From Bacteroidales bacterium (GTDB lineage Bacteria > Bacteroidota > Bacteroidia > Bacteroidales > UBA932), in contig JAFSWO010000105.1 of the NCBI GenBank assembly GCA_017450165.1, positions 13,131-77,130 of the forward strand: 64,000 nucleotides of DNA, given 5' to 3'. The notes under the pieces were generated by a model. That model saw only the letters and a program-made list of their open reading frames with translations, made no database searches and was not told the origin of the DNA. Made by a program: the position numbers and the translations under genes. Shown here in pieces: positions 27,923 to 49,257 of this stretch. Position 1 is the first letter of the stretch. Each line of letters starts with the position of its first letter.

Positions 27923-27926
27923 GGCG

Positions 27927-31917: not shown

Positions 31918-31926
31918 TATTCTCAA

Positions 31927-32901
31927 TTACTCAACCGTAACACCAGCTTCCGCGGCCGTCCAGACGTCCGTGGTGGCGGTAAAGGTGATATTGTCGTTCA
32001 GTCCGATGCTGAGTGTGTAAATATATTTTTTACCGGGTTCCCATTGCGTAATCGTACCACGAAGCGGAATGGTAACCGGAGCGTTTTCAAATGTAAAGGT
32101 AGCAGAATTTAACGTTTGAGCAATACTATAGCTCACGGTAAGTGACGCTGTAGCGTCAACTGCTGAAGAAAGTGTCTGCGGCAAAAAGAGATATGTGCAG
32201 ACCGTATCGATATCCGGTTCGTTCTGGGCGTTATAGGTCAGCGCCAGGGACGCGTTGGACAGGAATGTAAAATCATGGAGACTCTCCTGGTTGGACCAGG
32301 TGCCGTCGGCAAAGTCCCCGACAGTATATATATTATTGAGGGACAAGCCCTTGAGGGACAGATTCACCGTGCTGTTGGCGTTGTTATAGTAATCTGCCGC
32401 TTTCACGCGGAATACCACCTGCGAAAGTGCGTGTGAGAAAGTCAAAGGAACACTTTCCGGATGCGTGGAGCAGTCTGCAACCGTCGCGGTTGCGTAGCAG
32501 AGGTCCGTCGTCATCTCGGTGGTGGATTGTACGGTGTAATCAGTGGCGGTAACGCCGTTTGTCTGATCGATGCTCAGGCCGGTTGCGCTAGCCGGACTGT
32601 ATGCTTTGAATGTGAGGGAGCCGCCCAGGGGCCAGTACTGGTCGGTAGATGTTGCCCAGAGGGCTATGGTAGAATTGTATGAGGCTTCAAGACGCTCAAA
32701 ATACGGTGCGGCACCATCGTGAAAAGCACTCACGACGAAATGCTCCGTTTCAGGATAGACCGTGCCTGTAATGATAGCCCTCGTTGCTTTGGAAGCTACC
32801 GGCGCAAAGGAGATCTTACTGGAGGTGATCTCCGATATCGTGCAGGCCGAAAGCAGGAATGCGGCCGCAACGACAGTCAGGTATGCGTGTCTTGTTTTCA
32901 T
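31927..32901 (-). CDS. Fimbrillin-family type V pilin lipoprotein
   Basis: Lipobox LLSAC. It contains KISFAPVASKATR, FKAYSPAS, LTFSHALSQVVFRV and C-terminal ITFTATTDVW. Confidence 0.85.
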   Translation of the reverse strand: MKTRHAYLTVVAAAFLLSACTISEITSSKISFAPVASKATRAIITGTVYPETEHFVVSAFHDGAAPYFERLEASYNSTIALWATSTDQYWPLGGSLTFKAYSPASATGLSIDQTNGVTATDYTVQSTTEMTTDLCYATATVADCSTHPESVPLTFSHALSQVVFRVKAADYYNNANSTVNLSLKGLSLNNIYTVGDFADGTWSNQESLHDFTFLSNASLALTYNAQNEPDIDTVCTYLFLPQTLSSAVDATASLTVSYSIAQTLNSATFTFENAPVTIPLRGTITQWEPGKKYIYTLSIGLNDNITFTATTDVWTAAEAGVTVE

Positions 32902-32909
32902 ACGATTCT

Positions 32910-33947
32910 CTATTCGTCCAGAATAATTTCACGGGTCTCGACCCAGTCTGTGACAGCCAGGCTTAAAACGCTGCTTTCCAGACCGACAGCGAGTCGGAAC
33001 GTGTATTTGTAATGAGGAAGCCACTTCTGGCAGCAGTTCCAAATGGGAAGATGTGCTTCACCGGGGACCTCGTAGGTCAGGTCTTGAAGGACATTTCCGG
33101 TTGTCAGGTCCGTCAACGTGGAATGCACGACGGTACGGTGCCATTCGTCGATCCGGGCCGTTTCCGGCAGGAGTTGCGGAATCAGCAGCAGCGGATCCAG
33201 CGGAGTGAGGACCGGCGTGTTGTGGTTGTCGCACTCCAGCGCCAGGCCGGAGGGTTTGTTGAAAATGGTGTAGGTGGTCACGGAAGGGTTGGTTATCCAG
33301 CCCATAGGTTCCTGGGTAAAGTGACCTTCGCAGATCACGCCCGAAATCTTTACGGAATCGAGCACCACGGTCATTTGGTCGGATTGCAGCAGGTTCTCGG
33401 AAACCAGCAGTTTGGAGTATTGCTTCAAGGGGCGGACCTTGATGCAGACCTGCGTGAGCGCGTGATCGAACACGATCGGAACCACGGCGGAGTGCAGTTT
33501 GCAATTCTCGGTGGTTTTCGCGTAGCAGAGGTCTACCTGCGCCTCTTCGAACGAAGAGATGGACCAATCGGTTTCAACGCCCTTTTCGGGGCTGATTCTA
33601 ATTTGCGGAATAGCGGGAGAAGCGGCGTAGAAGACGACATCGCCATCGTGCGGCCAGAGAAACTCCTCCGTAGGACGCCACCAGGAATCTTTTGCGTCGA
33701 ATTCAATTCTCGCTCCCGACATGTAGATATTATCCCAGTCGTTATCAAGTCCTTGAGGGTAATGGACCGCCTCCACGACAAACGGAATATCCTGCGGATA
33801 GCTTGTCGAGCTGATGATGCACTTGGTGTGCGAAGCCACAGCGGAGAACACGATCTTGTCTCCCGGCATCGGATAGCGGGAATTGATCGTGCACGATGCG
33901 GTCAGCAGTGCAACATTCAACAGGATGATTGCGAGTCTTTTACCCAT
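32910..33947 (-). CDS. Fimbrillin-family type V pilin lipoprotein
   Basis: The start is trimmed to MGKRLAIILLNVALLTASC. It contains KIVFSAVASHTK, FYAASPA, IVFDHALTQVCIKV and C-terminal LAVTDWVE. Confidence 0.85.
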   Translation of the reverse strand: MGKRLAIILLNVALLTASCTINSRYPMPGDKIVFSAVASHTKCIISSTSYPQDIPFVVEAVHYPQGLDNDWDNIYMSGARIEFDAKDSWWRPTEEFLWPHDGDVVFYAASPAIPQIRISPEKGVETDWSISSFEEAQVDLCYAKTTENCKLHSAVVPIVFDHALTQVCIKVRPLKQYSKLLVSENLLQSDQMTVVLDSVKISGVICEGHFTQEPMGWITNPSVTTYTIFNKPSGLALECDNHNTPVLTPLDPLLLIPQLLPETARIDEWHRTVVHSTLTDLTTGNVLQDLTYEVPGEAHLPIWNCCQKWLPHYKYTFRLAVGLESSVLSLAVTDWVETREIILDE

Positions 33948-33963
33948 AACACTATCCCCTTCC

Positions 33964-33997
33964 CGGACGGGGTGCGCGGGGAATTGCACCCCGTCCG
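33964..33997 (-). promoter_or_regulatory. Perfect 12-bp GC-rich stem-loop inside the pilus operon, a candidate attenuator or RNA-stabilising/processing structure
   Basis: The sequence is cggacggggtgc gcggggaatt gcaccccgtccg. It sits in the only sizeable intergenic gap (88 nt) of the operon, and no U-tract follows it on the minus strand. Confidence 0.55.
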
Positions 33998-34035
33998 TTG
34001 GGAGATGATTTATATAAACAATCGATTCTCAGGCA

Positions 34036-35121
34036 TTACAGCAGTACTGCGTTGACGGCGTCGATGGTGATACCGGAGATATCCTCGGTATCCCAGCCTT
34101 CAACAAGGGGTGAGAACATGATCTCGTTGTTGGCACCGTCAAGGGAGATGCCGATATGGAAGACATAACGCTTGCCGTTCTGGAACTTGTTGGCGCTTAT
34201 CTTGCCATAGATGGGGATGTTGACGGTCTGGGTAGGAGTTGCAGGATAGTCGAAGCCGTTGATGGTATAAGCGGCGATGCTGTATTGGACCTCGATGACC
34301 TGATCTGCTGCAGTGCCGGTGACAACGTTGTCGGGAATGACTACAAATGCTGCGCTGTTGTCGATTGATGCCACGAAGGATGCCCCGGAGAGATAACTCT
34401 CAGTCTCCTGAAGGACCTCGCTGCCCTGGAAGGAAACGAAGTCTGCGGTGGTGTTGATGTTGCTCCATGCGCCCTTGCCGATGGTCGTGCTCTTGGTGTA
34501 GTCACCGCTGGTGTGCAGGTTCTTGAAGGTAACCTTCTCGATGGAGATCTTGCCCTTCAGACTCTCGGTGGTGGTGGCGTCGAAAGCGGTAACTGCGATC
34601 TGGCTGGTGATGTGCTTGAACACAAGGTTTACCGTGGGCTTCGAGGTTGCCATCTGGGCGAGGGTGGTAGCTACGAGGGGGTCGATCTGGCTGCCGATAG
34701 CGGTACCGAGGCTCACACCGGTCAAGTTGATTCCCTTGGGCTCGGTTGCAGAGTCGAAGGTGGCGTTGAGGCTGCCGGGATAGTATGCGTAGAAGTCTAC
34801 GGTACCGGTAGCAGGCCAGAGGTATGTACCTGTAGTAGCCTTCCAGTCACCGCCCTGATTGGAGATGTTCACATCGTCCATAAGGGGAGTGGCGTAGTTG
34901 TAGGAACTTCCGTCAAGAGCTGCAAATGCATACACGTTGAAGGACTCCGTGGTGGGGAAAGCAAGCTGCTCGGGGCTGTTGCTGTCCGGGAGGATAAGTG
35001 CCTTCGTGGTGAGGGCATTGGGAGCGAAGTCGATAGGAGAATTCGCGGGAACGGTGAATTCGTTCTTGGAGCAGGCTGCAAATGCGAGAACTGCTGCTGC
35101 GATGATGAATACTTTTTTCAT
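34036..35121 (-). CDS. Fimbrillin-family type V pilin lipoprotein, stalk-type candidate
   Basis: Lipobox AFAACS. It contains PIDFAPNALTTK, FYAYYPG and LVFKHITSQIAV. Confidence 0.85.
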   Translation of the reverse strand: MKKVFIIAAAVLAFAACSKNEFTVPANSPIDFAPNALTTKALILPDSNSPEQLAFPTTESFNVYAFAALDGSSYNYATPLMDDVNISNQGGDWKATTGTYLWPATGTVDFYAYYPGSLNATFDSATEPKGINLTGVSLGTAIGSQIDPLVATTLAQMATSKPTVNLVFKHITSQIAVTAFDATTTESLKGKISIEKVTFKNLHTSGDYTKSTTIGKGAWSNINTTADFVSFQGSEVLQETESYLSGASFVASIDNSAAFVVIPDNVVTGTAADQVIEVQYSIAAYTINGFDYPATPTQTVNIPIYGKISANKFQNGKRYVFHIGISLDGANNEIMFSPLVEGWDTEDISGITIDAVNAVLL

Positions 35122-35143
35122 TTTGTTTGAGAATATTATGCTA

Positions 35144-36178
35144 TTACTTAACTGTGATTTGGGTGGGCTGAGGATCTGCGGCTACCCAGTCAACCATGGT
35201 AGGATTGAAGTAAATCTTGTTGAGGTCGATGACGATGTTGTAGTTGTAAATCTTGTTCTGCTCCCATGCGGTGACATCCGTGGTGCGGAGGTCAACGGTC
35301 ACGGTCTTCGAACCCAGATCGACGCCGCTCTTCTCGAGGGAGTAGGTGATGTCGAACTGCTGGGTTGCTGCGACAAGAGACTGGGGAACCATCATGTTGG
35401 CATTGCCGAACGCGGCGAAATCAGCAGAGTAGTTGGGAGCGACGACATCGCTGCCCTCGCTGTCATAATCAGCGTCAACCGTTGCGCTGCCCCAAACCGG
35501 CGTGTCGTCGGTGACGGTGAGGGTACCGGTGGAGTAAGCGTTGAAAACGATGCTGTTCACGGTAACGGTGTAGTCATCGAGACCGTCGGCCTTCTTGACA
35601 AGGAACTTCACCTGGGAAAGAGCGTGGTGGAAAATCATGTTGACACCGGTGAGGGTGCTGGTTGTGATCTCGGAGGTATAGGTGCTCTGGTTGTCAGAAA
35701 GATCCTTCTGGGTGGTTGCCCACATAAGGTCGGTCTGTGCTGCAGTCGTGCCGGCCGCAACATAGTTTGTGACGGTCATGACCTTGGTTCCTGGCGCATA
35801 GGCGACCTTGGAAGCCTCGGCGTAAGGTGAAAATCCCGTGAAGGTAAGGCTACCGGAAAGGGGCCAGTAATAAACGCTGGCGGGTTCCCAGATGAGATCG
35901 GTGCTGTTGTAGGAAATTTCAACCTTATCCATATAAGCCTGGCCGTCAGCGCTGTTGGCAGCCCACGTTTTACCATCGGTAAGAGCATAGCAGAAAACGC
36001 CGAAAGTAGGATCGGTAGTCTTGTAGACAGTACCGCTGAGAGGAGTTCTCGTGGCCGGGCCGGACACGGTGTTGAAGTTGATCTCGCGAGCTTTCCGGCT
36101 CTGCGGATCCAGCGTGTTGTGCGAGCAGGATGCGAGTGCTAAGACTGCAATGGCTGCGATTGCGAAAAACTTTTTCAT
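35144..36178 (-). CDS. Fimbrillin-family type V pilin lipoprotein, stalk-type candidate
   Basis: The start is trimmed to MKKFFAIAAIAVLALASCS. It contains EINFNTVSGPATR, FTGFSPY, MIFHHALSQVKFLV and C-terminal IYFNPTMVDWV. Confidence 0.85.
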   Translation of the reverse strand: MKKFFAIAAIAVLALASCSHNTLDPQSRKAREINFNTVSGPATRTPLSGTVYKTTDPTFGVFCYALTDGKTWAANSADGQAYMDKVEISYNSTDLIWEPASVYYWPLSGSLTFTGFSPYAEASKVAYAPGTKVMTVTNYVAAGTTAAQTDLMWATTQKDLSDNQSTYTSEITTSTLTGVNMIFHHALSQVKFLVKKADGLDDYTVTVNSIVFNAYSTGTLTVTDDTPVWGSATVDADYDSEGSDVVAPNYSADFAAFGNANMMVPQSLVAATQQFDITYSLEKSGVDLGSKTVTVDLRTTDVTAWEQNKIYNYNIVIDLNKIYFNPTMVDWVAADPQPTQITVK

Positions 36179-36211
36179 AATGGAATTATTGTTTGTTACT
36201 TTTTCCATGAA

Positions 36212-37309
36212 TTAGTCGAGAATGTTGATGGTCTGGACATCCACCTCTACCCAGTCGGTAACCGTCGGGTTGAAGGTGATTTCATTGAGCTTGAAGCAAA
36301 GGGTGTAGTTGTACTTCTTACCTGCTTCCCAAGCTGCGATAGCCTGAGCGGGATCGAGTTCACTGCCGGCCTCTTTCACTGCCATCCAAGGAGCGGCAAC
36401 GGTAACGGTACCGGTGATAGGAGCATACGTCTTCTGCTTCATGGTGTACTTGATGGTGATCGTCGTACCTTCGAGAACGTCGGCCGTTGCAGGATCATCA
36501 GCGTTCGCTGCCTGAGGGATCATGACGAGTGCGCGGCCATAGAGATCAGCTGCTGCATCGTTAGCTGCATAGTTCACAACCTGGGTCGTGTTGAAGTAAG
36601 TCAGATTCTCAGTCTGAGCTGCATTGTCTGCCCAAGCAATGGCATCGTTGGCGTAAGTGACATCACCGGAGAGGTCAATGTTGTTGATAGCGATGCTGTC
36701 GACTTTGAATTCAACCTCATCCAGCGTGTAGTCATAGTCGGTACGAACGCGGAACTGAATCTGCGAAAGAGCGTGCTTGAAAACCAGCGGAAGTGCATCT
36801 GCACGACGTGCGCCCTCGTTGGTTGCGAACATCAGGTCGGTAGAATCCTTGCCGGTAACGGTGTAATCTGCAATCGTTGCCTGCGGCTTCTTGTTGGTAG
36901 CATCCCAGCCGGTGGTGGTGGGAGCTACGGTCGACGGGTGGACGGCGAGGAAGCTGATCTTGCCGGTGAACGGCCAATAGTAGTAGTTGTCAGCATTACG
37001 CCATGCCTCGGCACGGCTGTCACGGCCGCCTGTCCAGGAGATGGTCAGGTTGGTCATGAAATTGGAAGCATCGTCCGTTACAAATTCGGAGAAGTCCCCT
37101 TCCGGAGACTGCCAGCCCCAAACGTTGAAGGTGTTGTCGGTGCCGTAGGTGGTACCAGAGATGATCGCGTCATTGGCGCGGGTTGCCAGACGAGTTACGG
37201 CGTTGAAACCGATTTCGTTGTCCCGAGTCTGATTGACAGGCTCGATGTTGCTGCAGGATGCGAACACTGCGAGTGTTGCCGCTGCGAGAATCAATTGAGT
37301 TTTTTTCAT
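36212..37309 (-). CDS. Fimbrillin-family type V pilin lipoprotein, stalk-type candidate
   Basis: Lipobox VFASCS. It contains EIGFNAVTRLATR, FLAVHPS, LVFKHALSQIQFRV and C-terminal ITFNPTVTDWVE. Confidence 0.85.
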   Translation of the reverse strand: MKKTQLILAAATLAVFASCSNIEPVNQTRDNEIGFNAVTRLATRANDAIISGTTYGTDNTFNVWGWQSPEGDFSEFVTDDASNFMTNLTISWTGGRDSRAEAWRNADNYYYWPFTGKISFLAVHPSTVAPTTTGWDATNKKPQATIADYTVTGKDSTDLMFATNEGARRADALPLVFKHALSQIQFRVRTDYDYTLDEVEFKVDSIAINNIDLSGDVTYANDAIAWADNAAQTENLTYFNTTQVVNYAANDAAADLYGRALVMIPQAANADDPATADVLEGTTITIKYTMKQKTYAPITGTVTVAAPWMAVKEAGSELDPAQAIAAWEAGKKYNYTLCFKLNEITFNPTVTDWVEVDVQTINILD

Positions 37310-37349
37310 GATGTTTGATTGTTTATAAAAATGGTTAATAGTTTCGTTT

Positions 37350-38369
37350 TTAAATGTTTATCGGGACATCCACCACTGTCCAGTCGTCCACGCCGGGCTG
37401 GAAGCCACCGCCTCCACCGGGGGTCGTAGGAACAGGGATGGTGATATCTTCTTCAATATGGATTACCTGATTCTTGATAGCTTCTTCCGTGTAGAATTCG
37501 TCGGTGATGTCACGGCGCCAGATAATGGTGTCGCCGCCCGTGGTCTTCAGGGTGAGCCACAGGACGCTTTCCACATTCGGGTTCTTTCCGAAGGTATTGA
37601 ACGTACCTACGACGATATCGTTGTTGTCATCGTCGGTACCGGGACCCATCTCGAACATCAGGGTGACGTCGGTATTGGTCTTACCTTCCTCGGTGGGCAG
37701 GCCAAGCATGTTGGATGCAATCTGGCCGGTGAGGAGTGCGCGTGCGGAAGATAGGTACTGACGATTCTTGAGGCGGACCGAGATGTGCCAGGTCTGGATG
37801 ATGCTCTCGGCATCGGTCTCGATCACCTGCTCTTCCGTAGTGTTCAGGACGGTGACGATCTCGCGGCTCACGAAGAGGTGGTCCGGTTCGTAAATCACCT
37901 TACCCTCCTGCACCTTCTGCAGAGCGACGGACCAAATGTCCGTCTCAGGATCGTCCTCGAGCAGCGTCTGACCATAGTGGATAGCCGCCAGGAGGCTAGA
38001 CTTCAGTGCGGAAGACACCTCGTTGGTGTAAGCCTCGATCGTATTGTAGTCGCGGTCGTTGCGGACGAGGGTAGCCTCGGTATCGAAGTTGTAACCGATG
38101 AACTTGTACTGTCCCGGAGGAAGGGCGATTCGACCGCCGCCTGCAGGCAGGTAGCTCTCGGTGACGAGTTCGTTGGTGTTGATGTCGAAGAACATCACGC
38201 GCATCATCTCCGGAGTCGGCAGGTTCTGGATCTTACCATTGACCTTGACGTTCAGATTGATACGGATCCTGAGGTCCAGCGTAGCGCTGCCGTACTCAAG
38301 CTCGCGCCGCTCGCAGCCTACGAGGACTGTGAGAAGAACAGCAAGAATTATGAGGATGCGCTTCTTCAT
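37350..38369 (-). CDS. Pilus anchor candidate (FimB/Mfa2-like or DUF5119-type lipoprotein)
   Basis: Lipobox VLVGCE. It lacks the strand + T[RK] maturation motif and the C-terminal xFxPxVxDW motif that the pilins have. It sits directly upstream of the stalk-type genes. Its ATG overlaps the upstream stop (TAATG). Confidence 0.6.
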   Translation of the reverse strand: MKKRILIILAVLLTVLVGCERRELEYGSATLDLRIRINLNVKVNGKIQNLPTPEMMRVMFFDINTNELVTESYLPAGGGRIALPPGQYKFIGYNFDTEATLVRNDRDYNTIEAYTNEVSSALKSSLLAAIHYGQTLLEDDPETDIWSVALQKVQEGKVIYEPDHLFVSREIVTVLNTTEEQVIETDAESIIQTWHISVRLKNRQYLSSARALLTGQIASNMLGLPTEEGKTNTDVTLMFEMGPGTDDDNNDIVVGTFNTFGKNPNVESVLWLTLKTTGGDTIIWRRDITDEFYTEEAIKNQVIHIEEDITIPVPTTPGGGGGFQPGVDDWTVVDVPINI

Positions 38370-40330
38370 TACTGGACCTTAACTTTTTTGTTGTAGTGGA
38401 TCAGGTACCGCAGCGACACCTTTGCGTCGGTGACACCGAAGTAGGTGAGTTTTCCACTGTATTGGTAAACGAGATGCTCGTTGTTGGAGCGTCCCACGTA
38501 GTATCTGTACTGGGTAAAGAGCGGACCGCCGCCCACAGCGAAGTCGAGGCTCCAGTCGTGGCCGAGGGTAAGGCCGTAGCCGATGCCGAGGGTACCGAGG
38601 ATCTCTTCTCCCTGATAACCGCGGCCATTGCGCTCGAAGTCATAGTAGCCTGCGCCCAGAGAAGCGTAAGCATACCAACCGTCAAGCAGTTCGCGATTTG
38701 CTTTGGGCTTGAACGGATTTGCGAAGGTACCGCCGGGATACCAGCGGGCACCGAGGTCGGCATGCAGCAGCTCGGCGCAATCTGCATTGCTGTTCCAAGC
38801 GCGCCAAGGTGCGGTTGCCATATAGTTTGCGAACACGCTGAAGTGCTGTCCGATAGGAACTTCAACACCGATGTTGAGCGGAACGCTGTGGAAACCGGTG
38901 AAGACCGTAGCGGACTCATACAGCAGGTTGTTGGAGATCGCGAAGAGCGGACGGCGCTCCTTGGTGTAAACCTCCGTTGCGGTGGTGCCGGCGGTGTCGG
39001 TTGCAGCAACCGCGTCGGCGTCGGTCACCGTGATGGCGATGGAGTCAGTTGCGGCAACGGCGGTGGTGTCGGTCTGAGGGTAGAGAAGACCCGGAACCAG
39101 CGTATCGACCGGATTCACCGCTGCAACCGTATCTACGGCCTTAACGGCAGTGCTGTCCTCGTTCGCGAGCGCGCGCTCCATAGTATCGCGAGCGTGCGCG
39201 AGGGTATCGGGTAACGCAGGCGCGGCGGTATCAACACTCTCGTACTCAGGGACCACCGATGCGAAACGGGTCTGCGGGAGGACATCCTCCAGGATGCGGT
39301 TCCACGCAGCGTTCTGGCGGAGGGCAGCCTCTTTTGCCTGAGCGCTCAGGTTGGGATTATCAATCGTCTTGAGAAGCTCATATTTCTCGATGGCGGTAAG
39401 GTTGTCGGCATTCTTGACGCTCTCACGAAGTTCATCCCAGGCCTCACCCTGCGACTCAACAACGATCAAGCCACTGAGTTTCGGATACTTAGATTCGATG
39501 TACTGCTTCAAAGCATCACCACGGCGCTGAGCTATCGCCTTGTTGAGGGCCACGGGGCCATCGATGGAGGAACCGGAGATGATTCTCAGTTTGGTCAGAC
39601 GGTCAGCGTTGCGGCCGCTCAGGAATTCGTCGAGGTCGGCGAGCACCTGTGCGTTGTCAGCGAACGTTGCATCAACCTCTGCGGAGTTCAGCGGGAACAG
39701 GATGTTGTAGCGGTCCTGCGATTCTTCAGTGCTCGGAGCAATCTGCTTGAGCGAAACCTCTGCGTAACGGAAGTACTTGAAGAAGTTGCGGTAAAGCAGA
39801 GAGAAAGCCGGCTGCTGACGAAGCTGGGCCTCTTTCTCGTCAGAAGTGATGTCCTTGTCAAGGATGGCAAGGAGCTTGGTGCGGCTCGTCTCATCCAGGC
39901 GCTCGTCGGAAACGACCGCTTCGCGGAGGTCGTCCCATGCCTCAGCGTTCGGGTTCATAAAGACGCGGCCCCAGAGCTTCGGATACTTGGCGAGGAGGTA
40001 ATCACGAAGAGCAGCCGAACGCTTCTCGGAGAGATACTGGTTGTAGTAGACATTGCCTTCCGGGGAGGAGTAAGAAATGATCTCGAGGGCGAGGCTGCTG
40101 TCTTCAGCGCAACGAGCGGCAATTTCTTCTGCAGCTGCGAGCGCATCAGCATTGTTCAGGTACGCCGCGTTGACCGACCACTTGTCCACGGGGAAGAACA
40201 CGCGAGCTGCGGAGTCCTGTGCGAGAGCGTTGGCGCGCGTAAAGAAAAACGCGACCAGGACGAACAAAAGGCGCACTGCGAGCTTTGCAGCCGCGTTTAC
40301 CGCCATGTGGGTTTTGTTGGTCCTGATCAT
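38369..40330 (-). CDS. Fusion protein: 2 x OmpA-like 'SPEG' module, an Ala/Thr/Asp-rich linker and a DUF3575-like outer-membrane beta-barrel
   Basis: It has a signal peptide ending ..ANALAQ. The SPEG modules are LEIISYSSPEGNVYYNQYLSEKRSAALRDYL and LRIISGSSIDGPVALNKAIAQRRGDALKQYI, each followed by EAWD(D/E)LRE. The C-terminal barrel has NNLLYESATVF..LNIGVEVPIG..GWYAYASLGAGYYDF and ends ..SLRY. Confidence 0.75.
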   Translation of the reverse strand: MIRTNKTHMAVNAAAKLAVRLLFVLVAFFFTRANALAQDSAARVFFPVDKWSVNAAYLNNADALAAAEEIAARCAEDSSLALEIISYSSPEGNVYYNQYLSEKRSAALRDYLLAKYPKLWGRVFMNPNAEAWDDLREAVVSDERLDETSRTKLLAILDKDITSDEKEAQLRQQPAFSLLYRNFFKYFRYAEVSLKQIAPSTEESQDRYNILFPLNSAEVDATFADNAQVLADLDEFLSGRNADRLTKLRIISGSSIDGPVALNKAIAQRRGDALKQYIESKYPKLSGLIVVESQGEAWDELRESVKNADNLTAIEKYELLKTIDNPNLSAQAKEAALRQNAAWNRILEDVLPQTRFASVVPEYESVDTAAPALPDTLAHARDTMERALANEDSTAVKAVDTVAAVNPVDTLVPGLLYPQTDTTAVAATDSIAITVTDADAVAATDTAGTTATEVYTKERRPLFAISNNLLYESATVFTGFHSVPLNIGVEVPIGQHFSVFANYMATAPWRAWNSNADCAELLHADLGARWYPGGTFANPFKPKANRELLDGWYAYASLGAGYYDFERNGRGYQGEEILGTLGIGYGLTLGHDWSLDFAVGGGPLFTQYRYYVGRSNNEHLVYQYSGKLTYFGVTDAKVSLRYLIHYNKKVKVQ

Positions 40331-40406
40331 GTTTCAGTTTTTTCTATGTCGATTTTCCGCCCTGCTTATGCGCGCATATATACGCGTACACGAGCAAAAA
40401 TCGGGG

Positions 40407-40414
40407 CAAAGGTA
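40407..40414 (-). promoter_or_regulatory. Candidate -7 box (TACCTTTG) for the pilus operon
   Basis: The plus strand reads caaaggta. It lies 77 nt upstream of the ATG at 40330. Confidence 0.45.
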
Positions 40415-40417
40415 ATG

Positions 40418-40631
40418 CTTTTTTTGAATCGTGAAACTTTTTTTGAATATTTTTTAAAATTAATTTTTGATTCTTGCTGTTTTTGGCCGATAAAAGCACT
40501 AAAATCAGGGGTAAAATAAAATTCTATTGCGGATTCATAAAAAGTTGATGATAATGGCAAAAATGGGGGAGGCGGCAAAAGCACCCCCTAGAGGGCCCCA
40601 GGACGTGAAAAAATCAAGATTCATAAAAAAA
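40418..40631. promoter_or_regulatory. Four copies of an AT-rich 12-13-nt motif, CTTTTT(T/A)TGAAT, arranged as two nested inverted pairs
   Basis: ctttttttgaat occurs at 40418..40429 and 40437..40448. The reverse orientation attcataaaaag occurs at 40533..40544 and attcataaaaaaa at 40619..40631. Confidence 0.4.
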
Positions 40632-40676
40632 TCGCAAAAAAGTGAAAAAATATTTACGATTTTAAGTTATTTGTTT

Positions 40677-40684
40677 TACCTTTG
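40677..40684 (+). promoter_or_regulatory. Candidate -7 box (TACCTTTG) for the pilin-like / 7TM-AraC pair
   Basis: It lies 48 nt upstream of the ATG at 40732. It is the same 8-mer as the divergent promoter box. Confidence 0.45.
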
Positions 40685-40731
40685 TTGACAGAAACAGAAC
40701 ACAATTTCGCGCACACCTATATATATTATAT

Positions 40732-41820
40732 ATGGAAAACAGGAATTCGATATTACGAATCTTAACGATAGGAGCGATTTCGCTTACTATTTTTAACTCA
40801 TGCGCCCAGGATAATTTCGGAATTGAAAGCGAACCTGAGGCTAAGAAAGTCAAATTTGACGTAAAGGTCACTCGCGAGGGAACCGAAATTCCCGGATCCG
40901 CCATCACGCGAGGCTCCTCTTATGAGTCTGAGGTCAACAAAATCGCCACGATGAACACGGAAATCCCCTTCGGTCTCATCGCAGTGGACCCTGAGAGCGA
41001 AACCGTGATTATCGACAATCAGGCCATCCACAACTATGCACACGGTGGTTATACTGGCCTGTTTGACGCCGGCCTGTGGGAAATACCCGTCAAGATGCAG
41101 TTCAGCGCTTACTATCCCTACGTAGAGGGTGTCACCTACTCGGAGGGCAAGAGTTCCTATTCCATTCCTTACTCAGCCGTTGAGACGGAAGCAGGTCCGC
41201 TCGTATCCAAAACCGTGGAGCGCGCCATCCAGCAACTGAACATGGTTCCCTTTGAATTCCAGCATATTACGAACGATATCGGCTTCAAGATTGCAGACGT
41301 AACTCCGGACAAGCGACTGCAGGGCCTGATTCACCTGCGCAAGGTTACCGCCTACAAAGTAGCCTCGGCCGGCGTATTTGTCAATGACCTGGCATTGAGC
41401 CACGGTGTCTGGCACAAGCAGGCCTACTTCCGCAACGTGGTGGTATTCGAGGGTGACGAGCTGGTGGGCGTAGGCGAGGCCAACGAGAAGTTCATCGGCC
41501 GTACTGCACTGGTAGACAAGTTCTCCCAGAGCTATCGCTACTACGCGATCCCGGATGAAATCAAGATTGGAAAGCAATTTATAAAGGTAGAATATGACAT
41601 TGACAGCTTCACCCTCAACGGATTTGAGTATCCGCGACTGGAGGGTGTCGTAGCCAAGTTCATGCTCTACGGTGTGCTGCCGGACAACGTGATGGTCTAC
41701 GGACGCCAGTATACTTTCCACCTGGGGTTGGACCTCTCCTCCGTTTATAGTGAAATTACCTTTAGTCCTTCCGTAAGTGAATGGGAAACAAGAATATACG
41801 AAAATAATGACATTTTCTGA
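40732..41820 (+). CDS. Fimbrillin-family (type V pilin-like) lipoprotein
   Basis: Lipobox IFNSCA. It contains VKFDVKVTREGTEIPGSAITR, FSAYYPY, FEFQHITNDIGFKI and C-terminal ITFSPSVSEWE. Confidence 0.85.
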   Translation: MENRNSILRILTIGAISLTIFNSCAQDNFGIESEPEAKKVKFDVKVTREGTEIPGSAITRGSSYESEVNKIATMNTEIPFGLIAVDPESETVIIDNQAIHNYAHGGYTGLFDAGLWEIPVKMQFSAYYPYVEGVTYSEGKSSYSIPYSAVETEAGPLVSKTVERAIQQLNMVPFEFQHITNDIGFKIADVTPDKRLQGLIHLRKVTAYKVASAGVFVNDLALSHGVWHKQAYFRNVVVFEGDELVGVGEANEKFIGRTALVDKFSQSYRYYAIPDEIKIGKQFIKVEYDIDSFTLNGFEYPRLEGVVAKFMLYGVLPDNVMVYGRQYTFHLGLDLSSVYSEITFSPSVSEWETRIYENNDIF

Positions 41821-43151
41821 TGCTACATGATCTACTGATTTTTGCACCAGTTGCGGCTTGCCTCTTCTGGGCAATCATGCACTGCCTCATAGCCTATCGG
41901 ACCAATACTTTCCCAGCCATCATGGTGCTAACCTTGACGGCTATGGTCTTTTTTATGATAGATGGTTATTACTCCGCTATTTACGGGACACCGGAAGTCT
42001 ATATTTGGTTCTCTTTGATCTATCAGTTGGTGGCGCCGGGATTGATCCCGGCCGCGATGTTTTATATGCGGCGGTTGATGAAGGAGCAACGATACCACTT
42101 CGTGCAATTCCTGTGGGTAATCATCCCAGCCATCATGTTCTCGGTTACTGCCCTGTTAATGAGCATTATAGGACCGTCCGAGATTGTCAATATGACCAAT
42201 GCCATCAACACGCACGGCCTCGCCGTGCTTTCGCAGTATAAAGGGGAGCTGGTATACCGGTATTATGTATGGTCTGATCTCGTGTTGCGCATAGTCATTG
42301 GTATGGAGATGGTTTACATGCTCATCTACATGATTGTTCTTTCCATCAACAGAAAGTATAGCCTTGGGCAAATCTTCAAATTTCTATTTAGAGGTGCCGA
42401 CATCGATGTGCTTCAGATTCAGTTAAATGCGCTATCTGGTATTGCCGTTGTGTATTTGTCCAAATTGTTCTTTTTCAAGAGTTATCTGGATACACACTTG
42501 TGGATCACGGCGCTTTTGTCGGTCTATGTAACCGTGGCCGTCTTCAGCCTCGGCTTTTTCTCACTGTTTGGCGCTCATCCCTCCTTCAGTATCAGGGATA
42601 TCCGCAATTTGATGCGGTTTAATTACAACCGCAAGAATAAGCAGAAGACCATTGAGTCTATGTTTGAACACTTGCTTGAGGATGCCGACACGGAAACCCA
42701 GCGGCGAATCCGCGGTAAGATTGTCGTATCCAGCGAGGTGGATACCTGGGAGCAAAACCAGGCGCAGAGCCGCCCCTCACTGGCAGACGCCTTATTCAAT
42801 GTCAGCAACGAAACCTGGTCGGAAAACAGCATGATGGGGCGCTTCCAGCGCCTGATGCGCGACGAACAGCTCTATCTGAAGCCCGGACTATCGCTGCAGG
42901 ACGTAGCAGAGCGGCTTGGAACCAACAAAACCTATGTCTCCAAGATGGTGAACAACACCTTCAACATGGGCTTCCCCGAACTGTTGAACATCCTGCGCGT
43001 AGATTATGCTGAGCACTATATCGTGTTGCACAAGGACGCCAAGCAGAGTCAGATTGCCGAGGCATGCGGTTTCTTCAGCGCCTCTTCATTCAACAATACC
43101 TTCAAGCACGTCACCGGTATGACGCCGAAGACGTGGCTGAGCACGAGGTAG
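41820..43151 (+). CDS. Membrane-embedded AraC/XylS-family transcriptional regulator with about 7 TM helices and a C-terminal HTH
   Basis: Seven hydrophobic segments fall in residues 1-260, for example LLIFAPVAACLFWAIMHCLIAY and LWITALLSVYVTVAVFSLGFFSLF. The C-terminus is LSLQDVAERLGTNKTYVSKMV...IAEACGFFSASSFNNTFKHVTGMTPKTW. Its ATG overlaps the upstream TGA by 1 nt. Confidence 0.85.
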   Translation: MLHDLLIFAPVAACLFWAIMHCLIAYRTNTFPAIMVLTLTAMVFFMIDGYYSAIYGTPEVYIWFSLIYQLVAPGLIPAAMFYMRRLMKEQRYHFVQFLWVIIPAIMFSVTALLMSIIGPSEIVNMTNAINTHGLAVLSQYKGELVYRYYVWSDLVLRIVIGMEMVYMLIYMIVLSINRKYSLGQIFKFLFRGADIDVLQIQLNALSGIAVVYLSKLFFFKSYLDTHLWITALLSVYVTVAVFSLGFFSLFGAHPSFSIRDIRNLMRFNYNRKNKQKTIESMFEHLLEDADTETQRRIRGKIVVSSEVDTWEQNQAQSRPSLADALFNVSNETWSENSMMGRFQRLMRDEQLYLKPGLSLQDVAERLGTNKTYVSKMVNNTFNMGFPELLNILRVDYAEHYIVLHKDAKQSQIAEACGFFSASSFNNTFKHVTGMTPKTWLSTR

Positions 43152-43191
43152 AGGAGTCGTTGCGCGCCTGTGAGGCAGGTTGCCAATTAGA

Positions 43192-44562
43192 CTAGAGAAA
43201 CAGGTCGGCGATAATTGCGTCGGAGACGAAGAAACGGTCTGCGGGAATACGCAGGCCGTTGTTTGTTTGCACAAGTCTTCCATCGGCGAGCATAGAATCC
43301 AGCTTCGGACGAATCGCTGAAAGGTGTTCCGGAGAAAGGTCGTCCAGCTTTAAACCGACAGCTGTCCGGAGCGAAAGCATCACTTTCTCGTTCGCCAAAT
43401 CTTTGTCCGAGAGTGTTTCAAAATCTAAAATAGATGCTTCTGAGGCGCCCTGACCGATGTTTGAGGCGGTGTTTTCGGTTTCGAAAATGAAACTTTGCGT
43501 GGAGTATTTTGCCAGATAGGCCGCCAGGTCCGGGCGGTTCCAGCAGCGTGTACGGTACCCGTCGTAGGAATGGGCACCCGGGCCAAATCCCCAATAAGGT
43601 TCACGGCGCCAGTAGGCTGAGTTGTGCTGTGCTTCCCGACCCGGCAGCGCAAAATTGGAGATTTCGTACTGGAGGTAGCCGGCGGCGGCAGCGCGCTGCT
43701 GGAGCAGCGCGTACTGCCGGGCGCAGGTCTCCTGCGCCGGCGGCGCGTAGGCGCCTGCCGCCGCCTCGTCGCCCAGCGTACTCCCCTCCTCTACGCTCAT
43801 CTGGTAGCAGGAGAGGTGTTCGGGGTGCAAGGCCAGCGCATGGTCGATAGTCGCGAGCCAGTCATCGTCCGACAGGCCGGCGAAACCAAAAATCAGGTCC
43901 AGCGAGAGGTTGTCGAAGCCGGCTTCACGCGCCATCCGCACGGCGTTTTCCGCCTGCGAGGCCGTATGTCGGCGGCACATCCAGCGCAGGTGGGCGTCGC
44001 AGAAAGACTGAACGCCGATACTCAGGCGGTTCACTCCCAGGCGACGCCACGCAGCGAGTTTCTCCGGCGAAATATCGTCCGGATTCGCCTCCAGCGTAAA
44101 CTCCTCGAACGGAGTCCCTGTTTGGGAACAAATACCGGTGACGGCGGAGACGATGCGCTCCAACTGCTCCGGAGGTAACAGAGACGGGGTTCCGCCGCCA
44201 ATGTAGAGTGTAGGGTGCTCCCACAGGTATGGCGATTGCACCTGTAGGCGCGTTTTGGGCGTATTTTGCTCCCACAGGTGCGGAGATTGAACCTGTAGGC
44301 GCACTTCGGGGGAAGCCTCCCCGGACGAAGAAGGTAAATATGGATCAAAGTGCTGTTTGCGTCCCTCCGAATGGGACGAGGACGGCAAATACGGCCCAAA
44401 ATGCGGTTTACGTCCCTCAAAATGGGACGCAAACCGCACTTCATTCAGGAGGGCGTCTACGTAGCGTTCCAACGACGCTGCATCCGTGCAGCACTCAGAA
44501 TAGAAGCTGCAGTAGCGGCAGAAGGAAGCGCAGAAAGGTATATGTATATATATGCCTGCCAT
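43192..44562 (-). CDS. hemW: Radical SAM heme chaperone HemW (HemN-like, oxygen-independent coproporphyrinogen oxidase family) with an in-frame repeat insertion
   Basis: It begins IYIHIPFCASFCRYCSFYS (CxxxCxxC), followed by LYIGGGTPSLL about 100 residues later, where I expect about 40. The remainder is HemW-like. Confidence 0.9.
   Translation of the reverse strand: MAGIYIHIPFCASFCRYCSFYSECCTDAASLERYVDALLNEVRFASHFEGRKPHFGPYLPSSSHSEGRKQHFDPYLPSSSGEASPEVRLQVQSPHLWEQNTPKTRLQVQSPYLWEHPTLYIGGGTPSLLPPEQLERIVSAVTGICSQTGTPFEEFTLEANPDDISPEKLAAWRRLGVNRLSIGVQSFCDAHLRWMCRRHTASQAENAVRMAREAGFDNLSLDLIFGFAGLSDDDWLATIDHALALHPEHLSCYQMSVEEGSTLGDEAAAGAYAPPAQETCARQYALLQQRAAAAGYLQYEISNFALPGREAQHNSAYWRREPYWGFGPGAHSYDGYRTRCWNRPDLAAYLAKYSTQSFIFETENTASNIGQGASEASILDFETLSDKDLANEKVMLSLRTAVGLKLDDLSPEHLSAIRPKLDSMLADGRLVQTNNGLRIPADRFFVSDAIIADLFL
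44217..44425. repeat. Two different 51-nt-period tandem duplications inside hemW
   Basis: Repeat A units at 44217..44251 and 44268..44302 match at 31 of 35 nt, and each contains cccacaggt...acctgtagg. Repeat B units at 44324..44374 and 44375..44425 match at 40 of 51 nt by my hand alignment. They encode EGRK(P/Q)HF(G/D)PYLPSSS x2 and RLQVQSP(H/Y)LWE x2. Confidence 0.85.
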
Positions 44563-44577
44563 AGGTGTTTCAAGTTA

Positions 44578-44647
44578 GGGCCGCCGGGGAGGACCGCCGG
44601 GGAGGACCGCCGGGAGGACCGCCAGGAAGACCGTCGGGGAGGGCCGC
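44578..44647. repeat. GC-rich tandem repeat of about 5.5 units of 12-13 nt, (g/a)g(g/a)ccg(c/t)c(g/a)gg(g)a
   Basis: The units read gggccgccgggga, ggaccgccgggga, ggaccgccggga, ggaccgccagga, agaccgtcgggga and gggccgc. The array lies 16-85 nt upstream of the hemW ATG. Confidence 0.85.
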
Positions 44648-47131: not shown

Positions 47132-48148
47132 CTACTCAAATACAGAGGGTGAGACCCCGTAGAAGGCCTTAAAGGCGGAGGAGAAATAGGCCGGAGATGC
47201 GAAGCCGCAAGCTGCTGCAACGGTGGCCATGTTCTTCTCGCCGGAACGAAGCATCGTAGCGGCCGCTTCCATTCTGCGGGCCTTGATCATATCGGAGGGA
47301 GAAGAGGCCGAAAGGGCCTTCAATTTGCGGGAAAGGTGGACTCTCGAGATGCCCAATTCGGCAGCAATCTGATCTACGGAAAAGTCTTTGTCGGTATAAT
47401 TCTTTTCGACAATCTCCCGAACTTTTGCCTCGAAATCCTGGACCTCAAACAGCGTCCCGGGGTGAGCAACAGCTCCGGGCTTGACCTCGGGCTGAGGCTG
47501 AGATTTAGGCTGCGGTTCGAGCTTGGTTTCAGGCTTGACGGCGAGTTGAGTCTGCGGTTCGGGCTTGGCTTCGGGCTGAGGTTCTGGCCGGATCTCAGGC
47601 TTTGCCGCAGAAGGAGTGCTGGCGTTTCGCCTGCGAAGGATAAAGTAAACGAGGGCACAAATGACCGCAATAAGGCAGACGATTACGAGAACCCAAGGCC
47701 AGGTAGCCGGCTTCTTGGGCTCATCTACGACCGGCTCTTCAGGTTCCGGAGCGGTCGTCTCGAAAAGCGCTTCCCGGACAGAAGCGGGTATATCGCTGCG
47801 CTGGACAAACCCTTCAAGCGTGGAATAAGTGAGCACGACATCGCGCGCGTCACGTATCCAAAGGAGGCCGTTTTCATCAAAGGCGAGGGCGATGATTGAG
47901 TCGCATTCGAGATGGCCTGTCAGGGTAGAATAGGTAAAAGAGCGGCCGGTAGCACCGATCCGGAGAAGGCCTTTAGATGCCGTTCCAACCCACAGGGAGC
48001 TATCTTTGGGGCTAATTATTGAAATTGTAACATCATTTGCGGGTGTTGCATTTTCGCAAATTGCGGCCGTCTGATCGACAAGACTCAAGACGAGGATGCA
48101 GGCGATAAGACGGAGGAGGGAAAGAGATTTTACTGCTGGTCTCCTCAT
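47132..48148 (-). CDS. Single-pass membrane AraC/XylS-family regulator with a periplasmic propeller-like fragment, a TM helix, a Pro/Glu/Lys-rich linker and an HTH
   Basis: The start is trimmed to MRRPAVKSLSLLRLIACILVLSL. It contains LWVGTASKGLLRIG and GLLWIRDARD (Reg_prop-like), a TM helix (WPWVLVIVCLIAVICALVYFIL) and a linker (KPEIRPEPQPEAKPEPQ..). The HTH is FSVDQIAAELGISRVHLSRKL...AAACGFASPAYFSSAFKAFYGVSP. Confidence 0.85.
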   Translation of the reverse strand: MRRPAVKSLSLLRLIACILVLSLVDQTAAICENATPANDVTISIISPKDSSLWVGTASKGLLRIGATGRSFTYSTLTGHLECDSIIALAFDENGLLWIRDARDVVLTYSTLEGFVQRSDIPASVREALFETTAPEPEEPVVDEPKKPATWPWVLVIVCLIAVICALVYFILRRRNASTPSAAKPEIRPEPQPEAKPEPQTQLAVKPETKLEPQPKSQPQPEVKPGAVAHPGTLFEVQDFEAKVREIVEKNYTDKDFSVDQIAAELGISRVHLSRKLKALSASSPSDMIKARRMEAAATMLRSGEKNMATVAAACGFASPAYFSSAFKAFYGVSPSVFE

Positions 48149-48162
48149 AATACAAGGGGTAT

Positions 48163-49257
48163 TTATTCTGCGGTCGCAGAAATATTCACGCAGCGGAGCG
48201 ATCGCATCGACGCGGCAATCAGACGACTCCAAGTCACGCCTCCATCCAGGGCTTCGAGCTGCTCCTTCTTTGAGGAGTCGGAGAGAGATGTATCGTCGAG
48301 GATGTGTAAGATGTCGTTCTTGTCCGGACCCAACCAGGAGGAAGCGACGACTTCTCGCAAGCCCGCCCAGTTTTCTTCACAAGTGCGCACAGTGATCCTG
48401 TCGACGCTCACTCCGAGTTCGACAAGTTTTCGTTTGACTGCTTCTGCCCTTCGTCGTGCCAGTGTCTTGTTCCATGAGACTTTACCTTCCGGTGAAGACA
48501 AGGCGTCGAGGACCACGACGGATTCCGGAGGCAACGACACTATCCAGAACTGAAGCGACTGAAGCTGGGAAGTGTTGTCGAGGTAATGGGAGAGTATCTC
48601 AGAATTGCCGGCCGCGAACTTGACGGAAATCCGTTCGCCGTGCGGGTTTTCAGCAGGTGCTGCTGAACTCGCTGAGATTTCAATATTAGTGGTATACTCT
48701 ACGTAGATTTCCGTTCGTCGAATTCTCGTGAAGCAATTCCACAGCAAATCATCCCACACAATCCCGCCCCAGAGGTCCTGTAGAAGGGATTCTTTGTCAT
48801 TTTTGCCGCTTTTCAGCAGTGTCAAAGTTTCGTCCTTCCATTGTTTATTACACGCGCGCACGTAAGCCTCTGTCGATGCCCAGTCTTCGGGGACGTCGCT
48901 TACTACAATCTGTGAATCAGTAAGGCCGGGCAGTTTCTCCTTCAGCAAGGAGACGATTGCCTCGGAGCGGCGGGCAGCGAGTTTGGTGTTCCAGGAAAGA
49001 GATCCCTCGGGCGAAGAGTAGGAGGTCACGTTGATCCGCGCGATGCGGCCTGCCTCAACGGATGAAGCGAGCACGTCAATCTCGGCGATAGCAGAAGCAT
49101 TCTCCCGATTCGAAAGGTCAAGCGCTGATTTACCGGCCTGCCATCTGAAGCTGCCACTCCAGTTGCCCGCGAACAAGCCCGCTCCCGGGAACAGCATTCC
49201 CAGAACAACCAGAACCGATATGATTACCTTTCGAGACATTGATTTTGAAACATTCAA
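48163..49257 (-). CDS. Secreted 2 x OmpA-like 'SPEG' module protein, a paralog of the N-terminal half of 38369..40330
   Basis: It contains INVTSYSSPEGSLSWNTKLAARRSEAIVSLL and VLDALSSPEGKVSWNKTLARRRAEAVKRKL, each followed by (E)(D/N)WA.. helical segments. An alternative start at 49239 (MSRKVII..) is suggested by a TACCTTTG box at 49255..49262. Confidence 0.8.
   Translation of the reverse strand: MNVSKSMSRKVIISVLVVLGMLFPGAGLFAGNWSGSFRWQAGKSALDLSNRENASAIAEIDVLASSVEAGRIARINVTSYSSPEGSLSWNTKLAARRSEAIVSLLKEKLPGLTDSQIVVSDVPEDWASTEAYVRACNKQWKDETLTLLKSGKNDKESLLQDLWGGIVWDDLLWNCFTRIRRTEIYVEYTTNIEISASSAAPAENPHGERISVKFAAGNSEILSHYLDNTSQLQSLQFWIVSLPPESVVVLDALSSPEGKVSWNKTLARRRAEAVKRKLVELGVSVDRITVRTCEENWAGLREVVASSWLGPDKNDILHILDDTSLSDSSKKEQLEALDGGVTWSRLIAASMRSLRCVNISATAE

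Follow-up and report, generated by a model that had tools for sequence, protein, structure and literature searches.

The 64,000-nt window analyzed here (Bacteroidales bacterium, assembly GCA_017450165.1, contig JAFSWO010000105.1, positions 13,131 to 77,130 of the forward strand) contains a pair of plus-strand genes encoding a 362-aa pilin-like lipoprotein (40732..41820) and a 443-aa regulator (41820..43151), which we refer to as 7TM-AraC for its seven transmembrane (TM) helices and its AraC-type DNA-binding domain. The junction of the two genes reads TTCTGATGCTA, such that the TGA of the first (41818-41820) and the ATG of the second (41820-41822) share a single base (A), exactly the overlap described in the initial annotation of this DNA. 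As also described there, the pair diverges from a type V pilus-like operon (24515..40330), whose DUF3575-DUF5119-fimbrillin genes all lie on the minus strand, and the two start codons are separated by a 401-bp control region (40331..40731). The first operon gene (38369..40330) encodes a 653-aa protein with a periplasmic half of OmpA-like repeats and a DUF3575 beta-barrel, and is followed by a 339-aa DUF5119 lipoprotein (37350..38369), identified from its open reading frame (ORF) and Pfam. Next come five fimbrillin-type genes (36212..37309, 35144..36208, 34036..35121, 32910..33989 and 31927..32901), all matching Mfa_like_1 except that at 35144..36208, which has no Pfam match and aligns with the other four, and then three large ORFs of 496, 839 and 1135 aa that extend down to 24515.

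The regulator, characterized through its ORF, Pfam, hydropathy, AlphaFold2 and Foldseek, can be divided into a membrane domain (residues 1-251, 41820..42572, delimited by hydropathy, AlphaFold2 and alignments), a helical linker of low model confidence that joins TM7 to the AraC domain (residues 251-337), and an AraC/XylS-type DNA-binding domain (residues 338-443, 42831..43148, delimited by Pfam, AlphaFold2 and Foldseek). About seven TM helices had been proposed, and our topology check arrived at the same number, with hydropathy, the positive-inside rule and AlphaFold2 in agreement. Specifically, six of the hydrophobic segments stand out clearly in the hydropathy profile and a seventh is weaker, and the AlphaFold2 model, built from 59 sequences with a mean predicted local distance difference test (pLDDT) score of 82 and values mostly of 80-95 per 10-residue block in the membrane part, places TM helices at residues 2-24, 31-52, 58-86, 94-117, 144-177, 197-217 and 227-250 and two short extracytoplasmic helices at 119-140. 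Basic residues concentrate in the loops at 25-30, 87-93 and 178-196 and beyond residue 250, which by the positive-inside rule argues that the N-terminus faces out and the AraC domain is cytoplasmic. The predicted C-terminal helix-turn-helix was likewise recovered at residues 363-440, which match HTH_18 with 56.1 bits (cut-off 33.6, E 4.6e-15) and HTH_AraC with 40.8 bits (cut-off 26.6), and Foldseek aligned this part of the model with isolated AraC-family DNA-binding domains at target-normalized TM-scores of 0.66-0.85. As modeled, the 443-aa protein is a transmembrane one-component regulator, with its AraC domain predicted to be tethered to the inner face of the cytoplasmic membrane.

The seven-helix domain itself resembles no described module that we could detect. 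The Pfam scan of the regulator gave no match before residue 340, of 20 members at most 2 matched any one Pfam family, a profile of the domain found nothing among PDB sequences, and Foldseek against PDB folds returned only noise-level matches to G-protein-coupled receptors (E > 0.03, TM-score < 0.3). We considered 7TMR-DISM and other described bacterial seven-helix sensor modules and rejected them, as no Pfam 7TM model matched. When the profile of the membrane domain alone was searched against 1.84 billion cluster representatives, it retrieved 397 proteins, of which the full-length ones measure ~340-470 aa and the shorter ones look like fragments. A C-terminal AraC domain was found on 10 of 10 distant matches sampled and the lengths of the remaining matches fit the same architecture; the domain appears to be a small, undescribed family, fused to AraC in every member checked. 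Conserved intramembrane residues (P10, P77, Y82, W99, P103, E163 in mid-TM5, and Q201) are common to regulators with and without a linked lipoprotein, and the conserved D48, E163 and K215 of the helix bundle suggest a polar pocket. Distant members of ~400 aa occur in other contexts, one directly upstream of a resistance-nodulation-division (RND) efflux operon encoding a membrane fusion protein, a pump and an outer-membrane factor (L092, 8001-15312) and another alone amid housekeeping genes (L093, 8001-9224).

The full-length regulator has 464 database relatives at E ≤ 0.001, and the best 120 of these are nearly all ~445 aa long, the exceptions being a few that come from short contigs and are truncated. 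With one genome scanned per species, 79 regulator loci were obtained, all in metagenome-assembled genomes from rumen or other herbivore guts and nearly all labeled Bacteroidales or Bacteroidia; the few Fibrobacter and Clostridia labels are probably binning errors. No named or cultured organism was found among the relatives in this 79-locus scan, in which the nearest was ‘ruminal_MAG_292’ with a 90% identical regulator.

The lipoprotein was examined through its ORF, Pfam, AlphaFold2, Foldseek and alignments. It has a lipoprotein signal peptide with the lipobox LTIFNSC, whose Cys24 is at least 90% conserved across 58 homologues, and the motifs KVKFDVKVTREG...AITRG, QFSAYYPYVEG and EITFSPSVSEWE; the lipobox, AITR, FSAYYPY and ITFSPSVSEWE motifs quoted for it in the initial annotation are thereby all present. 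The match to Mfa_like_1 in Pfam passes only marginally (28.6 bits vs a cut-off of 27). An AlphaFold2 model built from the alignment of the 58 homologues (pLDDT 80) consists of two beta-sandwich domains, and Foldseek against solved type V pilins placed BF1858 (3t2l) on top with an E-value of 4e-11, with further matches to BACUNI_00621, BVU_2522, the FimA prepilin, Mfa4 and Mfa2. The predicted fold is that of a type V pilin. An N-terminal strand (residues 38-48) ends at Arg48, within a Thr47-Arg48-x-Gly50 motif that is invariant in the family, and a second basic residue, K/R70, sits in the flexible loop that follows; both are candidate sites for the Arg/Lys-specific cleavage by which type V pilins lose this strand and open their acceptor groove.

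The same architecture is evident in the operon pilins. All five align with the lipoprotein and have in common with it the lipobox, a basic residue after the N-terminal strand, and the C-terminal motif EITFxPxVxxW, which in the lipoprotein reads EITFSPSVSEW. The closest paralogue is the operon pilin at 34036..35121 (27% identity over 273 aa, E 2e-34), and the alignments indicate that the lipoprotein is a duplicated operon pilin that has retained the pilin hallmarks. What sets it apart is its tail. The last 21 residues (342-362) are disordered in the AlphaFold2 model, and ~57% of their positions are at least 90% conserved, including W351, I355, E357, N359 and F362; the operon pilins lack this invariant tail, WETxIYENNDxF.

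We then predicted the ORFs of every locus and compared them with the window proteins; 61 species-level loci had enough flank for this comparison. Synteny of the pair with pilus loci, which had been proposed as a survey, holds broadly: a DUF3575 gene lies divergently upstream of the regulator in 57/61 loci, a DUF3575 operon lies just downstream in two more, and the lipoprotein gene directly precedes the regulator in 43/61. At 54%, 45% and ~40% identity the layout is still a ~360-aa lipoprotein followed by a ~445-aa regulator, stop and start overlapped, with a divergent DUF3575-DUF5119-fimbrillin operon upstream; gene content on the far side changes from one relative to the next. The stop-to-start gap, measured in 58 lipoprotein-regulator pairs, is -4 nt in 7, -1 nt in 27, 0 nt in 14, +1 to +6 nt in 7 and more than 20 nt in 3, and hence falls between -4 and +6 nt in 55/58 pairs. 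The overlap and the divergent layout are therefore not due to chance, because both recur in dozens of species at only 35–55% identity, and tight coupling of the two genes is a conserved property and no accident of a single genome.

A third gene, encoding a stand-alone CheY-like receiver with the canonical Asp-Asp, phospho-acceptor Asp, Ser/Thr and Lys residues, directly follows the regulator in 32/61 loci. It co-occurs with the lipoprotein only, being present in 32 of the 43 loci that have the lipoprotein vs none of the 18 that do not. Neither the receiver nor a sensor kinase of the cassette was found within the 64-kb window. Loci that lack lipoprotein or receiver are scattered over the regulator tree, which argues for repeated loss, and the core link is therefore that between the regulator and the pilus-type operon, with the lipoprotein and the receiver as frequent accessories.

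Sequence conservation within the locus is unevenly distributed. In 43/43 genomes holding all three genes, the lipoprotein is the best conserved, followed by the regulator and then the DUF3575 protein, and median bit scores relative to self fall from 0.54 (lipoprotein) through 0.34 (regulator) and 0.19 (DUF3575) to 0.03 (DUF5119). The lipoprotein is 55-62% conserved across genomes whose structural pilins barely align, and by this measure it does not evolve like a pilus subunit.

To view the locus from the side of the lipoprotein, metagenome contigs were searched with its alignment, giving 80 loci, 75 of which have at least 400 nt of downstream sequence. The gene directly downstream encodes 7TM-AraC in 63/75 and a ~635-aa sensor histidine kinase in 8/75; in a further 3/75 the kinase is nearby yet not directly downstream, and the remaining locus (1/75) is a short contig with uninformative neighbors. 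The kinase consists of a signal peptide, a ~340-aa helical periplasmic domain resembling tetratricopeptide repeats (TPR-like), one TM helix, HisKA and HATPase_c. Behind its gene comes one for a 401-aa protein that is paralogous to the kinase’s periplasmic domain and has a membrane anchor at its C-terminus, and then the gene for the receiver described above; the string holds no DNA-binding protein. Such variant cassettes occur at L131 (945-5575) and L161 (3908-8522) and also at L125, L138, L146, L148, L152, L158 and L050; in L050 the lipoprotein, 7TM-AraC, receiver and kinase genes are contiguous, and in other genomes the kinase-receiver pair is 2-6 kb off. No pilus operon was found near L161, the sole kinase-type locus with upstream genes scanned, where these genes encode a radical S-adenosylmethionine (SAM) enzyme, a Fic protein and a LuxR-type regulator. 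An hhalign comparison of the 7TM domain with the N-terminus of the kinase found in its place gave no homology. Altogether 74/75 lipoprotein copies sit in a signaling cassette, which is the strongest evidence that the lipoprotein is a signaling component rather than a fiber subunit.

The control region between the divergent genes is ~96% identical to that of the relative with the 90% identical regulator protein. The Bacteroidetes -7 promoter consensus is TAnnTTTG, and a word-enrichment analysis of 58 control regions recovered it on both strands. In the window, the identical octamer TACCTTTG is predicted as the -7 box of the lipoprotein-regulator operon on the plus strand (40677..40684, ending 47 nt before the ATG) and as that of the pilus operon on the minus strand (40407..40414), with 263 bp between the two. 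Between these boxes lie conserved GATTC-containing words, which are enriched over shuffles in the relatives’ control regions and include two plus-strand copies of the direct repeat GATTCATAAAAA (40532..40543 and 40618..40629, the second 86 bp after the first), candidate operator half-sites. The two copies flank a GC-rich hairpin, GGGGGAGGCGGCAAAAGCACCCCC (40565..40588), and a scan of the control region against Rfam gave no match. Alternating TATATAT-type words occur a short distance upstream of both start codons (GCGCATATATACGCG and CACCTATATATATTATAT, 40370-40387 and 40714-40731) and are strongly enriched at the same places in relatives; the word may be a 5′-untranslated-region or translation-initiation element.

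The hairpin of the window, a degenerate G5...C5, is the counterpart of a G8-G13 homopolymer tract in relatives, with G8 in the closest one. Most relatives (L013-L091) have a G or C tract of 8–13 nt in the middle of the control region between the divergent promoters, usually followed by TA or TG and found in both orientations. The 1.37 Mb of fetched loci contain 38 G/C runs of 8 nt or longer, and 33 of them fall in the 31.7 kb of control regions, a ~280-fold enrichment, and the G tract varies in length (G8, G9, G10) among species with near-identical flanks. The tract looks like a slipped-strand phase-variation tract. In the relative L011, all four deep metagenomes gave G9, a result that comes from assembler contigs only and is not informative about length variation; in four low-coverage runs, one contig ends exactly at the tract (X32, 8283) and another just before it (X34, 8257).

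These observations are best explained if the two window genes are the minimal form of a modular cassette of uncultured herbivore-gut Bacteroidales, in which the lipoprotein is combined with 7TM-AraC and/or a kinase plus a CheY-like receiver. The 443-aa protein is probably a dedicated membrane-bound regulator of the divergent operon, and this is the part of the explanation that we hold with most confidence. Whether the lipoprotein serves as its input subunit we judge to be evenly balanced. Taken as one statement, a conserved signaling cassette in which a lipoprotein input subunit and 7TM-AraC control the divergent operon, the explanation seems to us somewhat better than an even proposition. The initial annotation had cast the pilin-like protein as a signaling partner that might be sensed at the membrane, and this stands in part: its conservation (43/43), its coupling to the regulator (55/58) and the kinase cassettes (8/75) all support such a partnership, but direct contact with the regulator is unsupported by the loops.

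We envision that the regulator would act from the membrane on the 401-bp region, with its two back-to-back TACCTTTG promoters, as its conserved synteny suggests, and would there set the transcription of both its own operon and the divergent DUF3575-DUF5119-fimbrillin operon. The lipoprotein, presumably produced in fixed proportion to the regulator, would travel the export and maturation route of lipoproteins and pilins, or sample the cell surface, and would feed the state of export, assembly or surface to the membrane sensor. A candidate for the element that is read is its flexible C-terminal tail, the counterpart of the donor strand of polymerizing pilins, and it may be read by the TPR-like domain of the kinase, in relatives, or by the polar pocket of the helix bundle in the window protein. 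The output would be a tuning of pilus-operon transcription.

Several observations weigh against this explanation or parts of it. Periplasmic loops are the least conserved parts of the 7TM domain (mean top-residue frequency ~0.33-0.36), and no residue on the periplasmic face separates lipoprotein-linked from lipoprotein-free regulators, Q343 in the AraC domain being the only one that differs; a fixed interface between loops and lipoprotein is therefore unlikely, and the sequences do not support direct contact between the two proteins. At 18/61 loci there is no lipoprotein and 7TM-AraC alone faces the operon, and this scattered absence argues that the lipoprotein is dispensable for the link between regulator and operon. 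The occurrence of distant members in other contexts implies that the membrane domain may sense a membrane or small-molecule cue alone. Since the lipoprotein keeps every pilin hallmark, it may also polymerize into a pilus. At the control region, the GATTC words and GATTCATAAAAA repeats are only candidate operator sites. Finally, four rumen or gut metatranscriptome runs gave scattered read-length contigs over window positions 36000-44600, at a depth of 2-5x, that fall on the lipoprotein, the regulator, the DUF3575 gene and pilins; the runs hold 6-10% of words, and this hints weakly at transcription of both operons in vivo, being compatible with low expression and with DNA carry-over alike.

Some of these points can be assembled into a different account, in which the lipoprotein would be a normal pilin with a role in structure or assembly, for example as initiator, adaptor or tip subunit of the neighboring pilus, merely co-transcribed with the regulator and without a part in signaling. 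True paralogy to the operon pilins, with the lipobox, the N-terminal strand with its basic cleavage candidate and the C-terminal strand motif all kept, would be expected of such a protein, as would the match of its fold to type V pilins, and the regulator bears no lipoprotein-specific signature. We nevertheless find this account doubtful, as it has to accommodate a lipoprotein that is the slowest-evolving product of a locus in which divergence has made the operon pilins and DUF5119 almost undetectable, that is followed by a kinase cassette in 8/75 loci (the one checked, L161, having no pilus operon nearby), that is the exclusive companion of the receiver gene, and whose start/stop overlap with the regulator is conserved.

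In a second alternative, which we consider unlikely, 7TM-AraC would use its helix bundle to sense directly a cue that is borne by the membrane or is a small molecule (for example a fatty acid, a bile-like compound, an ion or pH), and the lipoprotein and pilus operon would be its mere regulon, with no feedback from assembly. The intramembrane position of the conserved residues, common to members with and without a linked lipoprotein, fits this account, as do the distant members that adjoin an RND efflux operon and the 18/61 loci that manage without the lipoprotein. However, it leaves unexplained the strong constraint on a translationally coupled pilin paralogue and the appearance of the same lipoprotein at the head of kinase cassettes, and as far as the regulator half is concerned it is compatible with the signaling cassette that we favor. 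That the adjacency is incidental, with 7TM-AraC targeting genes elsewhere and the pilus operon controlled otherwise, for example by phase variation, is highly improbable: the G/C homopolymer of the relatives points to on/off switching by an independent mechanism and the regulator binding sites in the control region are only candidates, but 57/61 species-level genomes retain the divergent layout, with free variation of the genes on the other side.

The proposed signaling cassette can be compared with several known systems. Transmembrane transcription regulators are a recognized class that is enriched in Bacteroidota (PMC10269533). Within this class, ToxR/ToxS, TcpP/TcpH, VtrA/VtrC, PsaE/PsaF and CadC resemble the window pair in combining a membrane-tethered DNA-binding domain with a co-transcribed, often start/stop-overlapped extracytoplasmic partner (PMC9214523), and several of these ToxR-type systems control pili or fimbriae. 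They are built on an N-terminal OmpR-type winged helix, a single TM helix and a periplasmic sensor domain, with the partner encoded downstream, whereas the window regulator has a C-terminal AraC-type domain and a seven-helix bundle with almost no periplasmic mass, and its partner is a pilin-fold lipoprotein encoded upstream. Membership in the ToxR-like or co-component family was therefore rejected, given the seven TM helices, the upstream partner and the lack of a Trans_reg_C match on the regulator in Pfam.

The closest functional analogues of the proposed feedback are the intramembrane autoregulation by PilA and PilS in Pseudomonas (PMC6058289) and the signaling of PilA through PleC in Caulobacter (PMC7196804), in which a membrane-held pilus subunit is read by a polytopic sensor and pilin expression is adjusted. 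These systems use a type IV pilin with a TM helix, a histidine kinase with six TM helices and a response regulator, whereas the window encodes a lipid-anchored paralogue of type V pilins that is not the major subunit, and a sensor that is itself predicted to bind DNA. An AraC-type output from the membrane, as in the window regulator, is also found in the Bacteroides hybrid two-component systems and in Vibrio TfoS. The hybrid systems unite periplasmic sensor, kinase, receiver and AraC domains in one polypeptide of ~1,300 aa, an arrangement that relatives of the window cassette approach by adding separate receiver and sensor kinase genes, but the 7TM domain is unrelated to the hybrid systems and to TfoS, and we rejected membership in the hybrid family since the Pfam scan found no HisKA, HATPase_c or Response_reg domain on the 443-aa regulator. 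RcsF-IgaA and NlpE-CpxA follow the same reporter-lipoprotein logic as proposed for the window pair, with outer-membrane lipoproteins that take a general export route and report the state of the envelope or surface to polytopic inner-membrane proteins, but they have no relationship to the pair in sequence or fold and their output is a phosphorelay instead of a membrane protein that binds DNA. As for the type V pilins themselves (FimA/Mfa1, Mfa_like_1), they share with the window lipoprotein a lipoprotein precursor, a two-domain beta-sandwich, an N-terminal strand with a basic residue and a C-terminal strand motif; the window lipoprotein differs from them in its high conservation, in having its gene with those of regulators, sometimes with no pilus operon nearby (at the one locus checked), and in its own C-terminal tail.

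The window contains a second cassette that pairs a structural-protein paralogue with a membrane-anchored AraC regulator. The product of its first gene (48163..49239, minus strand) is secreted, contains two OmpA-like repeats and is paralogous to the periplasmic half of the DUF3575 protein, with which it shares 25% identity over 297 aa (E 7e-16). The second gene (47132..48148, minus strand) starts 14 nt after the first and specifies a single-pass membrane AraC regulator, in which a signal-anchor and a small extracytoplasmic domain precede one strong TM helix, and a Pro/Glu/Lys linker leads on to HTH_18. This cassette lies within 4 kb of the 7TM-AraC gene in 22/61 genomes. In the window, two structural proteins of the pilus operon thus each have a paralogue that is paired with a membrane-anchored AraC regulator. 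We speculate, with probability well short of even, that a pilin-fold lipoprotein was recruited as a dedicated input subunit that reads type V pilus export and assembly via a free donor strand, and that the sister cassette does likewise with its paralogue of the DUF3575 half. If true, no assembly checkpoint of type V pili would have been described before this one, which would be built from decoy copies of the machine’s own parts.

Type V pili are the main adhesive fibers of Bacteroidota. To our knowledge, their outer-membrane assembly route is poorly understood, and the only regulation we are aware of is by FimS/FimR in Porphyromonas gingivalis and by invertible promoters in gut Bacteroides. 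We know of no pilin-sensing circuit of the PilA-PilS or PilA-PleC kind for these pili, and a literature search on type V pili with AraC, on DUF3575/DUF5119, and on fimbrillin with AraC and transmembrane found no report of such an arrangement, which looks like an undescribed way of controlling type V pili. What appears to be new is the seven-helix membrane domain together with its pilin-derived partner, so far confined to uncultured herbivore-gut Bacteroidales. The cassette would add a membrane sensor domain seen solely in fusions to AraC, a pilin paralogue that serves signaling instead of structure, and a concrete link from pilus biogenesis to transcription, and it is present in dozens of abundant uncultured rumen Bacteroidales species, for whose ecology attachment to plant fiber is central. 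Envelope machines may more generally be wired to gene expression through such pairs of a structural-protein paralogue and a membrane AraC regulator, of which the window has two.

On its other side, the regulator gene is followed by a convergent gene for the radical SAM heme chaperone HemW (hemW, 43192-44562, minus strand). A terminator-like hairpin (43233..43260) lies in the 3′ end of the hemW ORF, ~80 nt past the stop codon of the regulator. Near its N-terminus, HemW has an in-frame insertion (44323-44429) that corresponds to a 51-bp tandem repeat of 2.1 copies with 80% matches, and a 13-bp GC-rich repeat occurs just upstream of the gene (44577-44647).

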